Source: Octopus vulgaris (Eukaryota). Taken from it: a stretch of 64,000 bases of DNA. Numbering within the stretch: the first letter of the stretch is position 1; every line of letters starts with the position of its first letter. Under the pieces are notes generated by a model. It was given only the letters and a program-made list of their open reading frames with translations. It had not been told where the DNA came from and did not search any database. Positions 2,170 through 63,205 of this stretch are shown piece by piece. The DNA is taken from positions 64,914,001-64,978,000 of the forward strand of contig OX597816.1 in the NCBI GenBank assembly GCA_951406725.2. Reading direction: 5' to 3'. A program made the position numbers and the translations under genes.

Positions 2170-2212
2170 TCCACACACCGGTTTCGCAGTATTTGCCCCT
2201 TATCAATGTGAA
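2170..2212 (-). ncRNA. Degenerate minimal hammerhead-like motif, U3-A8 core
   Basis: Minus strand: UUCACA UUGAUAA GGGGC AAAUAC UGC GAAAC CG GUG UGUGGA. Stem I pairs, but the triplet is GUG (not NUH) and stem II is decayed. Confidence 0.4.
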
Positions 2213-2412
2213 ATAGCTAACTGCAGCAGTCTTTCTATTTCTCTGGACTGCCATGTTAGCTTGTTGATAAATATTAATACCCAGTACTGCTGACGTAGTC
2301 TCCTTTAGAGTGATTTAGAAATAATAATATTTCTATTTTTGAAAATCACTGAATAGATATAAATAAACCTTCGAACAGACAGTCAAAAGCGACGCCTGCT
2401 GGATTCATCCAC

Positions 2413-2455
2413 TCCACATTGATAAGGGGCAAATACCTAGAAACCGGTTGGTGGG
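2413..2455 (+). ncRNA. Minimal hammerhead-like motif, U3-A8 core
   Basis: UCCACA UUGAUAA GGGG CAAAUA CCUA GAAAC CG GUU GGUGGG. Stem III is palindromic (AACCGGUU); stems I and II are imperfect. Confidence 0.5.
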
Positions 2456-2709
2456 TGTTGAACATGCAAAGGGAAGCTGTTCGAAGGTTATAATGTACAC
2501 AGATGCGTGTGTCACATAGCTAGCTTAAGGCGATGGCCTCTCGGAGCTTATCAACCGCAGCATTCGTCCTATTTCTCTGTACTGTCATGTTAGCTTGGCG
2601 ATAAATATTAAAGCAAAATATACTGTTTCGAAATGTATTATTCTGAACTCAATTTATTCTTCAATTGGAAAACAGTTTATTCTTCAATTGATAAATCAAT
2701 TCTGAATTC

Positions 2710-2910
2710 ATAATACAAAATAATAATAATAATAATAATAATAATAATGATAATAATAATAATAAATAATGATAATAATAATAATAACAACAATAACAAT
2801 AGTAATAATAACAACAACAACAACAACAACAACAACAACAACAATAATAATAATAATAATAATAATAATAATAATAATAATAAGAAGAAGAAGAAGAAGA
2901 AGAAGAAGAA
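2710..2910. repeat. Compound (AAT)n/(AAC)n/(AAG)n microsatellite
   Basis: Directly visible. Confidence 0.95.
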
Positions 2911-2914
2911 CACG

Positions 2915-3990
2915 AAAAAATTTTATCATATGCACCGCGTTGTTCAGGAAGAGTTTTAGGCTCATGTTCATTGACAAATGCAGCCAAGTCTGTGATGATA
3001 TAATGTGTCTCTCTTGCTATGTCTCTTGAAGTTAAATCAATACTTTGATGGTTTGGTATTGGAAGTCCAGAGCCAAACTCGTGCAAAGTTTTGCCTTCTA
3101 TGGCCAAAACTTGATCTTCAATTTCAATCAGTGCTTGGTTAAAAATTGTTTTATTGAACTGAATATTGATATCTGGGTTACCTGTTTAATTTTACAGCCA
3201 TGTCCTCAAAATGTGTCATCGAAAGCTGTAGTGGACTGCAAAGTTGGCACACGTTCAGTATAACTGCCAAAAGGTTACGAGGTTTCCTTGGACATTCTGA
3301 TACTGATTCTTCAGTCAATGCAATGTTCCAATGCCCATGATTTTCTAAAAAGAAAAACCTTCATGATAATATACTTCCCAATAAGTTTCACACACAGGAT
3401 CATTTACCCTTCTCGAATTTTGGAATGATTTGGGGCCATGTACTTCATACCAAAGGCGCCGTAAGTCGTAGCATTCTGCTTGGATTGGGAGGACACAGTA
3501 AACTCTTTCAAGAACGTCATCCCCACGTTTCCTTATCTCCCATTTATTGTTTCTTCAGAAGTAATACTTGGGTAATTGTGGGTAAAGGAATTTTCTTGCA
3601 TCTTCATCTACTGGACACAACTTTAAAAAGCGGTTTGTTTTGGATAACATGCTTGTTTAAATGTTGTTTCTTTTGCAAAGATAACCCTGTGGCCATTCTC
3701 TAGATGGACACTTGGATGAATGGTAGCTGTGTGTTTCCCATGAATGCGGAAATTGAAATTGCAGCAAAAAGCCTCATTGGTATTGATGTATCTTCCTCTG
3801 TTATACTGTACATCGTCGTTTTTATTTATCCGCTCATTGCCATTATGCATGAGAGTGTATATTGCAGCATCTAAACATCTAAACCTTTGTTTATATATTT
3901 GCAAACATACTTAATAGAATTAACAGAGTTGCAGAATTCACCATTGAATCTAGCTATTTGTACTCGTCTTTGCTTCACGATTGAATACTG
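2915..3990 (-). pseudogene. Helitron Rep-helicase relic (Rep C-terminus and linker), frameshifted
   Basis: Minus-strand pieces translate to EFCNSVNSIKYVCKYINKG (Helitron Rep two-tyrosine motif), GRYINTNEAF..FRIHGKH..VHLENGHRVIF, and GKTLHEFG..LP..RETHY..FVNEHE..LPEQRGAYDKI (the segment just before the PIF1 helicase). Confidence 0.85.
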
Positions 3991-60900: not shown

Positions 60901-61634
60901 CTAGTTATGATGTTAAAGAAATATTAGAGAAACAGAAGGAATTGAAGAGGACAAACTTAAATTCAAAATAATGACTAAAGCTTTACTGAAAGGAATGGTT
61001 CGATCTGTGATAAAAATAAATGGTTTCCAAAAATACATGTTGAGAGGAAGTAGGACACTCAATTTATCAAGGAGACAGCCTTTATTCTAACCTAATATTC
61101 CGAAAGAAACTTTGCAACACAGACTAAATGCTATTTGAATTCTTTAGTACAGTTCTCAAATCTTAATTATTATCTAGAAGACATGGTCTTATTTTTGGTC
61201 TTAAACAGGTGAATATACACTACCAGCGAAGTAGATTTGCGCCTAGTGATTTAGAAAGATCTGACAAAGGTCAAGTAACTGGGTATGGACTTTTGCATAT
61301 ACTCAATTACTTGTGTATACATACAAGCACATACACACACACGCACACACACAAACACACACACACACACACACACACACATATATATATATATATATAT
61401 ATATATATATATAATAAATAACAATAGGGTAATAAGAAATTATTATTACCAATGGCCTAGCACAAAAACGAATTTGTCATTAGACTATATATTATTCACA
61501 TAGAATAATATATATTTATAATAATATTATTGGTAAAAACGGTAAGATAACAAAAGAAAGAAAGAGACCTCAATATTATGTAAATAGAGGAAATGTATCG
61601 ATAAAATAATATGTTACAATTACTCAATAGTCAA

Positions 61635-61695
61635 GATAAAACTCTGAGTTTCAGATGCCGAAGTGGAAATCCACAACACCATCTCTTCGGTTATC
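61635..61695 (-). ncRNA. Type I hammerhead motif, CCGAAGA (U4C) core, sense to the PLE ORF
   Basis: GAUAA CCGAAGA GAUGGUG UUGUGGAUUUCCACUU CGGCAUC U GAAAC UCAGA GUU UUAUC. Confidence 0.68.
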
Positions 61696-62479
61696 TGGCC
61701 ATCTGAAAAAACTGTGTTATAATTCTGCTACTTATATAAAGTAAGATAAAAATTTCATAGTAAACACGTAAACATGGCTAGTCATACGCTCACTTGTGCG
61801 CTCGCGGATCCACGTGCATACCATACGTCACTATGAAAATGTACACATCTTCACTCGCATTTTTCGCCAAATATATACGCATATATATATATACAAACTC
61901 ATGCACACACACATGCGTACCGTAAAAGTCCATACAAACGTCTACATACACACAAGCACAAGAAAAACCATGGTTAAAGGTAACAGAAAAAAAACATAAG
62001 GAAGTGTACAAAGCATAAAAACCACGTTCATATACGGACATGCCCTTATGCACTCATACGCACACACGCCCATATATGTACATACCCGCACATGTTTATA
62101 TACGCATACACACACACGCATATACAAAAAATGAATATACATATGCCCCCCCCAAAAAAAATCTAAAAAAATGGAAAAATACTAAGTAAAAACGTCTATA
62201 TATATATGCATTCTTATGTCCGCACACACGCACACATCTAAAACTGCCCACTTATACATATTCTCACACGTGTACAAATGAATCTATATACACGTCTATA
62301 TAGGCACAGGAAAAATGCAGGATAGAAAAGTAGAGAAAAAATTATTATGTGTGAAAAAATAAAAATATATGAAATAATAAAAGGTATAATGAGATAAAAA
62401 ACTTCTTGGGACATAATATATAAAGCAAGTTCTATCTGTTTTCTTTAGGGGACCAAAAACGTAACAAACATTTTGTCAC

Positions 62480-63125
62480 ATATGGGCATGATCCGAAAAG
62501 TTCTGTCCTTGAGTTTAGACATGTAGTAGGGTCTAAGCTGCTTTTCCAGATAAGCTAACTCTCCATGTCGCATAGACAACACTTTCCGCTGCCGTTGGTG
62601 TAAGGCTTACATTTTGCCAAAATCTTCCAATGGATGTTATAATCGACACCTTTATCTTTTAAAGACCAAATATGATTAGATAATTTTGTCGCTTTTCTTT
62701 TGTTCCAGTGCCTAAAACTGAAGATGTGGTTATTGAACCTGGCCTTGAAATTACCCTCTGTAAGGCCCACGTATTTCTTCGTCGAAACGGTGTCTTTAGT
62801 GGTTATAGAGTCCACGGTAGCTTCATAGATGATGGTCCCGGACATGCAAGCTCCATTTAGCGGGCACAATTTTTTTATTCCTGCATGAACAGTTGTTTTC
62901 TTGTGGTTTTTGTGTGTTATGTTTGATTATATTTTTTTTAATTGGTAGTTGAACTAAAACAAATTTTTAAATTGTGTTTATTGAAGAGTTTCCTGTAAGT
63001 ATGGTTAACTGGAAAATGTCTATCTATCAGTGTTAAGAAATATTTACCTATATTGAAGGTCACGTCGGGCGAGTAAGGGGGTGTAAACCAGATGATCTTC
63101 CTATTTCTATTTTTCCTCTTCTTTA
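62480..63125 (-). pseudogene. PLE ORF C-terminus: linker plus GIY-YIG endonuclease, disrupted
   Basis: RKIIWFTPPYS..NIGKYFLTLIDRHFP..KLFNKHNLKI and CPLNGAC..IIYEATV..YVGLTEGNFKARFNNH..ATKLSNHIW..CCLC. Confidence 0.9.
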
Positions 63126-63144
63126 CTGTTTTTTCAGATGGCCA

Positions 63145-63205
63145 GATAACCGAAGAGATGGTGTTGTGGATTTCCACTTCGGCATCTGAAACTCAGAGTT
63201 TTATC
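63145..63205 (+). ncRNA. Type I hammerhead motif, CCGAAGA core (inverted copy of 61635-61695)
   Basis: Same sequence on the plus strand, with stem I GAUAA/UUAUC. Confidence 0.68.

Follow-up and report, generated by a model that had tools for sequence, protein, structure and literature searches.

Four departures from the standard hammerhead ribozyme core appear to have become the norm of whole retroelement families in Octopus vulgaris, as we found starting from a 64,000-nucleotide stretch of its genome (contig OX597816.1, positions 64,914,001-64,978,000; hereafter the window, to whose positions coordinates refer; the genome comprises 2.8 Gb in 227 contigs). The window holds 13 minimal hammerhead motifs in seven repeat families, F1-F7, and when these are compared with their relatives four variant cores are family norms and not decay: U6, the G3-C8 pair, C4 (in the young subfamily of F3) and the U3-A8 pair. 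We favour, with a probability of roughly 0.55, the reading that the motifs are minimal type I hammerheads in the pseudo long terminal repeats (pLTRs) of several families of Penelope-like elements (PLEs), four of them with a fixed non-standard core, and that they would still cut the RNA of the element, those with U6 or C4 slowly or only with help.

An earlier note on this DNA had reported about 12 motifs in at least seven repeat families, and all 13 coordinates that it cited do hold the succession of stem I, 7-nucleotide core, stem II, GAAA, short palindromic stem III, NUH and stem I; profile searches sort them into the seven families, those at 47626, 61635 and 63145 forming the single family F3 with two subfamilies. 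The minimal type I architecture, with its helix order and three helices around the core, was recovered by descriptor scans and by covariation in F5. An excess over shuffled sequence, a check set beforehand, was also found: a strict descriptor, which enforces structure and leaves positions 3, 4, 6, 7 and 8 free, gives four matches in the window versus 0.01 in 100 shuffles, the 3-8 pair being Watson-Crick in each of the four, and a scored descriptor gives six matches at a score of at least 26 versus a mean of 0.4 (maximum 2) in 30 local dinucleotide shuffles. Microsatellites are abundant in the window. With those five positions free, the 3-8 pair is Watson-Crick in 65 of 67 distinct structure matches within 1.39 Mb of fetched loci, which are enriched for the studied families, and the claim that this pair is always kept holds at family level: the majority of each family retains it together with G5, A9, GAA, A15.1-U16.1 and H17, some window copies breaking these individually. 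Private lesions relative to their relatives mark seven of the 13 window copies (2170, 2413, 13258, 19003, 39305, 47626 and 54260). The Rfam hammerhead models reach their gathering score nowhere in the window, and on the copies with G3-C8 or U6 none of them is listed even at E up to 10; since they also miss F1 and F2, whose cores are canonical, these models do not cover the minimal form.

Further descriptor candidates lie at 18148 and 53865, and a possible U3-A8 motif, UUGAAAA, at 49173-49210 on the minus strand (descriptor candidate 49203) has a 7-pair stem I and only a 2-pair stem II. Eight more candidates with a canonical core and a long stem II came up incidentally in loci L017, L179, L185, L224, L310, L374, L410 and L411, and suggest additional families.

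The genome was searched with the core positions left free (tallies per 100 concern the matches listed only). CUGANGA is the consensus core of F1 (243 exact matches), of F2 (in the relatives shown), of F7 and of the older F3 subfamily, and it is absent as a consensus from F4, F5, F6 and young F3. Among the 1,975 matches of F4, G3-C8 occurs in 94 of 100 and C3-G8 in none, while F5 has U3-A8 in 24 of 27, with UUGAUAA in 23 of 30 copies retrieved by upstream sequence alone. C4 is found in most of the 4,693 matches of F3, which fall into the two subfamilies, and in 26 of 30 fetched loci, invariably with U before GAAA. The two flank types of F6 (9,058 and 10,902 matches) carry U6 in 98 and 93 of 100, and its oldest group divides into U6 79, C6 14, A6 6 and G6 1; the U6 descriptor CUGUNGA gives 23,225 matches versus 23 in a reversed control, and canonical A6 with an F6-type stem II gives 309. 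A further family, F9, whose 3' end resembles that of F6 and which was not found in the window, has 13,583 exact matches and keeps A6; in 30 of its loci (L440-L469, e.g. G000:C1:183407-183434) C4 (18) and U4 (11) sort largely by clade, and on these sequences F9 is a second independent C4 lineage as well as an A6 outgroup for F6. The proposal that the variants are more than decay is thus borne out for U6, G3-C8, U3-A8 and young C4 and fails for 39305, whose variant is private decay, given that 21 of 23 F7 relatives are canonical and that the window copy is the sole CCGACGA. The companion proposal, that a search confined to CUGANGA misses much, proved right, to the extent of roughly 38,000 copies (a sum of lower bounds). 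Relaxed searches nevertheless need structure to be enforced, since a G3-C8 pattern made of sequence only (2,449 matches versus 1,000 in the control) is swamped by a repeat without stems I or II. Adenosine-to-inosine editing as a means of core repair was excluded by reasoning, because it cannot turn U6 into A, C4 into U or G3-C8 into C3-G8.

A tree of 92 F6 copies, with positions 6 and 7 excluded, is a ladder of subfamilies in which A6 copies are mostly nested inside U6 clades and share the N7 of their clade, as expected of changes after insertion. No distinct canonical A6 subfamily was found within F6, the 309 A6 matches being mostly scattered on the tree, and the 6 in 100 of the oldest group leave room for what may be a small old A6 clade. 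Seven subfamily majority lines, drawn from 97 of 115 copies (18 unassigned) with search patterns in which stem II and GAAA were fixed, vary within the motif only at N7 and N17, versus 65 of 134 varying flank columns; position 6 is A in two of the lines solely because A6-selected loci were included. Anchoring F6 outside the motif, with all 28 inner positions free, gives 21,991 matches versus 41 in a reversed control. In 30 of 30 copies fetched in this way C3, U4, G5, U6, G8, A9, A13, A14, A15.1 and U16.1 are invariant, and G12, which sits in a CpG, is kept in 27; the same copies have A 12, U 10, G 5 and C 3 at N7, and A 20, U 9, C 1 and no G at N17. In young F6 subfamilies stem I is one pair longer. 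As regards F5, 44 gap-free distinct copies out of 57 hold two-sided changes in stem I (2), in stem II (12 and 1) and in the stem III palindrome (7). Stem III is palindromic in all families, and the two-sided change in F5 preserves the palindrome in those 7 of the 44.

The link to PLEs that the earlier note had drawn rests on open reading frame (ORF) evidence for five of the seven families (F1, F2, F3, F4 and F6), which lie at the 3' ends of elements encoding a reverse transcriptase (RT) and a GIY-YIG domain. In young F3 (locus L178) the motif follows by about 190 bases, on the same strand, the stop of an intact RT/GIY-YIG ORF of 708 amino acids, and the element occurs as tandem 2,580-bp units, 99.7-99.96% identical, which put two hammerhead copies on one strand. 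Pfam GIY-YIG scores below its cut-off in this ORF (E 0.013), and the PLE RT, for which Pfam gave no match, was identified from YxDD-type motifs. The F3 element of the window (61635-63247 region) is 5'-truncated, with an inverted pLTR. F6 terminates a PLE with a CX4CXXC linker that inserts in (TA)n (L179), 20 loci of F1 include four with GIY-YIG sequence upstream, and a Poseidon-like fragment runs on into F2. In the first 60 loci F4 is not preceded by an ORF of its own; its link comes through L366 and L382, which have 1.7 kb of upstream sequence in common, L382 holding an open stretch of 522 amino acids in which an RT motif is accompanied by a GIY-YIG domain that passes the Pfam cut-off. PLE remnants adjoining F4 in L070 and L289 proved unrelated. 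F4 also shows two alternative 3' ends and AT-rich targets, the signature of a PLE "tail". Four of its copies (L287, L298, L300 and L303) have up to about 590 bases in common downstream, without a PLE ORF, as if inside another repeat. Loci of F5 and F7 contain inverted pLTR-like pairs. Since five of the families link to RT/GIY-YIG ORFs, most short "non-coding" copies are 5'-truncated ends of coding elements, and the view that many of these elements are non-coding is not supported, only F5 and F7 being without an ORF link in the loci examined. The labels Neptune, Nematis and Poseidon are used here on the strength of linker motifs, and the window element at 4865..6100 is probably Penelope/Poseidon-like. 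Short F4 copies start within a few bases of a branch point, pyrimidine tract and CAG resembling a 3' splice site (L382:2641-2665; near 15368 in the window), and a similar signal stands just upstream of the F3 motif; a connection with a pLTR intron is possible.

How such motifs might work can be outlined from their structure and from cited studies. A transcript through a tandem unit would carry two motifs, and pairing of their palindromic stem III halves would give a dimer fold. G3-C8 and U3-A8 would retain the 3-8 tertiary pair and with it the catalytic geometry, and the 3-8 swaps are likely functional, since C3G/G8C rescues activity when one type III hammerhead is scanned in depth (PMC9901934) and, when engineered into the PAc hammerhead of an anole Poseidon element, does so in part (Frangione 2024, PMC11167929). 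U6 and C4, for their part, would upset the uridine turn and reduce the rate; slowness is likely because all other CUGA single and double mutants in the type III scan have low activity, the A6C change costs hydrogen bonds and U4 is in contact with the 6-7 phosphate (PMC3088659). As selection nevertheless holds all other core positions, the element probably needs a folded core and not fast cleavage; RNA left uncut could still serve as template, and folding may be aided by the protein that the element encodes. Slow or assisted cutting fits one PLE hammerhead that cleaved only in the presence of the PLE protein and did not need to cleave for insertion to occur in vitro (PMC11167929). A bolder version of the same idea, possible but in our estimate rather doubtful, holds that U6 (>23,000 copies), C4 (two independent lineages, about 13,000) and G3-C8 (about 2,000) would be functional hammerheads, slowed deliberately, for which the PLE protein or metal ions act as the gate; were it true, no core-variant ribozymes described from nature would be more abundant, and the three would offer a natural series for asking why PLEs keep hammerheads.

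Several observations weigh against continued cutting within PLEs. The low activity of CUGA mutants just cited is one, and the lack of a clear ORF link within 1.5 kb on each side of 57 loci of F5 and 53 of F7, two sets that overlap (L420/L500 included for F7), is another. About half of the F6 flank columns are invariant too, so that the invariance of position 6 is by itself weak evidence, and C6 accounts for 14 of the 100 matches listed for the oldest group. The two-sided changes of F5 amount to 22 cells versus 7.8 in shuffles, none of 500 shuffles being as high, in a comparison that ignores the relatedness of the copies, and the pair-count measure is unexceptional (93 of 500 shuffles). In F3, finally, whether the copy is old or young, a monomer fold compatible with the hammerhead costs about 5 kcal/mol relative to the free ensemble. 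An off-switch formed by pairing of the young F3 core with the stem II arm found no support: another fold has the lowest energy, and the cost of the hammerhead fold is similar in both subfamilies. The stem II loop of F6 is constant across subfamilies as well, so that some of the constraint may have a reason other than catalysis; this would speak for the rather unlikely view that U6 and C4 motifs no longer cut, their fold or sequence being kept for another job such as binding of the PLE protein, RNA processing or a promoter element of the pLTR. This would agree with the weakness of CUGA mutants, with the spread of C4 in two independent lineages and with the PLE hammerhead that was dispensable in vitro, at whose cleavage site no reads ended (PMC11167929). 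Yet N7 and N17, where the variation lies, are precisely the two positions that catalysis leaves free (PMC7151607), G being absent from N17, and a protein or promoter site offers no evident reason for such a pattern.

The opposite view, in which the variants lose no efficiency, the core change being made good by the stems, loops or dimer context of the motifs themselves, could appeal to the survival of U6 through about seven subfamily turnovers to >20,000 copies and to the pair gained by stem I in young F6 subfamilies; we think it improbable, given that the minimal hammerheads of PLEs cleave slowly even when their core is canonical (PMC4209133) and that no second-site rescue of CUGA changes beyond the 3-8 swap was found in the type III scan (PMC9901934). 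Least probable of all, and only a slim chance in our estimate, is that the variants are neutral damage in dead ribozymes amplified by successful master elements. Copy number alone does reflect the success of a master, the variant at 39305 is private decay, and seven of the 13 window copies are damaged. A dead motif, however, should decay at the rate of its flanks, and in the F6 ladder none of the 11 constrained positions left free by the patterns has changed (nominal P ~7e-4, against a flank rate that includes T-rich tracts and treats columns as independent, a limit that also counts against our own reading); moreover, G3-C8 and U3-A8 would each need two matched changes, and are found in 94 of the 100 matches listed and in 23 of 30 copies, respectively.

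These results bear on how hammerheads are recognised and on what they are for. Core positions 4 and 6 are treated as nearly invariant, and here successful retroelement lineages, one of them (young F3) a young element with an intact ORF, have fixed C4 or U6 with the rest of the core kept; either a core that is part of a dimer or bound to protein tolerates more than has been assumed, or the fold is retained by PLEs for some purpose other than cutting. Both options bear on the open question of the role of PLE hammerheads, which the presence of canonical and variant sister families in one genome makes directly testable. If the variant motifs still cut, the range of working natural hammerheads is widened. 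Hammerhead counts and "no hammerhead" calls in PLE clades may also be off. U3-A8 has already been published for PLEs; natural G3-C8, A6U (U6) or U4C (C4) family norms were not found in full-text literature searches, a possible exception being Lunse 2017, reportedly a survey of PLE hammerhead variants, which could hold some of these cores.

The features of the window are collected in Table 1. The F4 copy at 15304 has a 7-bp stem I, a 5-bp stem II and a palindromic stem III. The 5S rRNA-like copy is likely a pseudogene or a 5S-derived repeat, and the helicase-like fragment beside F5, met at locus L091 too, is presumably of Helitron type.

Table 1. Hammerhead motifs, their host elements and other features of the window
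Feature	Position	Strand	Remarks
F5 hammerhead, core UUGAUAA (U3-A8)	2170..2212	-	Position 3 at 2206; decayed (G17, damaged stem II); inverted partner of 2413
F5 hammerhead, core UUGAUAA (U3-A8)	2413..2455	+	Position 3 at 2419; decayed (C11.1A, stem I mismatch)
Helicase-like fragment adjoining F5	2661-3185	-	Without Pfam match
5'-truncated Penelope-like element	4865..6100	-	RT-endonuclease (EN) fragment ~5150-6100 and F2 pLTR remnant 4865-4987, hammerhead core deleted
184-bp tandem units of a common dispersed repeat; three near-identical ~860-bp tandem units	9441-9807, 28936-29399, 21400-23600		
5S rRNA-like copy	11116-11234	-	78.4 bits, several broken pairs
F1 hammerhead, canonical CUGAUGA, long stem II	12601..12681	-	Position 3 at 12677; arm of inverted pLTR pair
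F1 hammerhead, canonical CUGAUGA	12799..12879	+	Position 3 at 12803; opposite arm of inverted pLTR pair
F2 hammerhead, canonical CUGAAGA	13258..13306	-	Position 3 at 13301; 2-nt insertion, altered stem III
F4 short pLTR copy	15142..15368	-	
F4 hammerhead, core GUGAACA (G3-C8), intact	15304..15354	-	Position 3 at 15347; predicted cleavage after 15311
F6 3' end of Neptune-like PLE, inserted at (TA)n	18195..18374	-	
F6 hammerhead, core CUGUUGA (U6), young subfamily, intact	18296..18333	-	Position 3 at 18328; predicted cleavage after 18301
F6 hammerhead, core CUGUCGA, oldest subfamily group	19003..19040	-	Position 3 at 19035; lesion G16.2A
F7 hammerhead, CCGACGA as private change (U4C)	39305..39381	-	Position 3 at 39375; family CUGANGA with U10.1-U11.1 mismatch
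Inverted partial F3 copy beside 47626	47474-47595		
F3 older-subfamily hammerhead, core CUGAAGA	47626..47686	+	Position 3 at 47631; G12C lesion (predicted dead), stem II changes
F6 hammerhead, core CUGUGGA, middle-aged subfamily	54260..54297	-	Position 3 at 54292; stem I mismatch
F3 young-subfamily hammerhead, core CCGAAGA (C4), in 3' pLTR	61635..61695	-	Position 3 at 61690
Broken 3' part of F3 RT/GIY-YIG ORF	62438..63096	-	87% identity to intact 708-amino-acid protein of L178
F3 young-subfamily hammerhead, core CCGAAGA	63145..63205	+	Position 3 at 63150; in inverted 5'-truncated pLTR 63131-63247

The octopus motifs are in many respects those of the minimal PLE hammerheads published by Cervera and de la Pena in 2014 (PMC4209133), with which they share the type I layout, the short palindromic stem III, the pLTR location, the many families per genome, the predominance of solo copies, nearby pairs on opposite strands and an extra nucleotide after A9 (here in F2, F4 and F6); dimer folding has been proposed for such hammerheads (PMC4209133, PMC6765202). 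U3-A8 was reported there with about 1,300 matches in Schistosoma, and UUGAUAA appears in Fig. S3, whose legible rows show only CUGANGA, UUGAUAA, UUGAAAA and UUGAAGA, unlike the G3-C8, U6 and C4 met here. PLE surveys use CUGANGA descriptors (PMC4209133, PMC8557442), and the available passages of PMC13282606 do not mention ribozymes. The host elements resemble the Neptune, Nematis and Poseidon PLEs (Craig 2021, PMC8557442) in their RT with C-terminal GIY-YIG and in their tandem and inverted structures, the CX4CXXC linker and (TA)n targets of F6 being features described for Neptune-type elements, a putative likeness in clade drawn from motifs. Having RT and GIY-YIG in one ORF and pLTRs in tandem and inverted order, they conform to EN+ Penelope-like elements. 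Like PAc (PMC11167929), they carry the hammerhead in the pLTR, and F4 further shares the two 3' ends and the AT-rich targets; G3-C8, engineered in PAc, is the natural state of F4. Natural core variants have been described as rare single cases, namely U3-A8 covariation, the U10.1-U11.1 mismatch and A6C in phage Bcep176 (Perreault 2011, PMC3088659; Naghdi 2020, PMC7151607), the last having a low rate in Mg and being active in Mn (PMC7151607). The octopus families have U3-A8, a change at position 6 and, in F7, the U10.1-U11.1 mismatch in common with them, while the passages available from these two papers contain neither A6U nor U4C nor a natural G3-C8; and, unlike those single cases, U6 is here the norm of a lineage of >20,000 copies.

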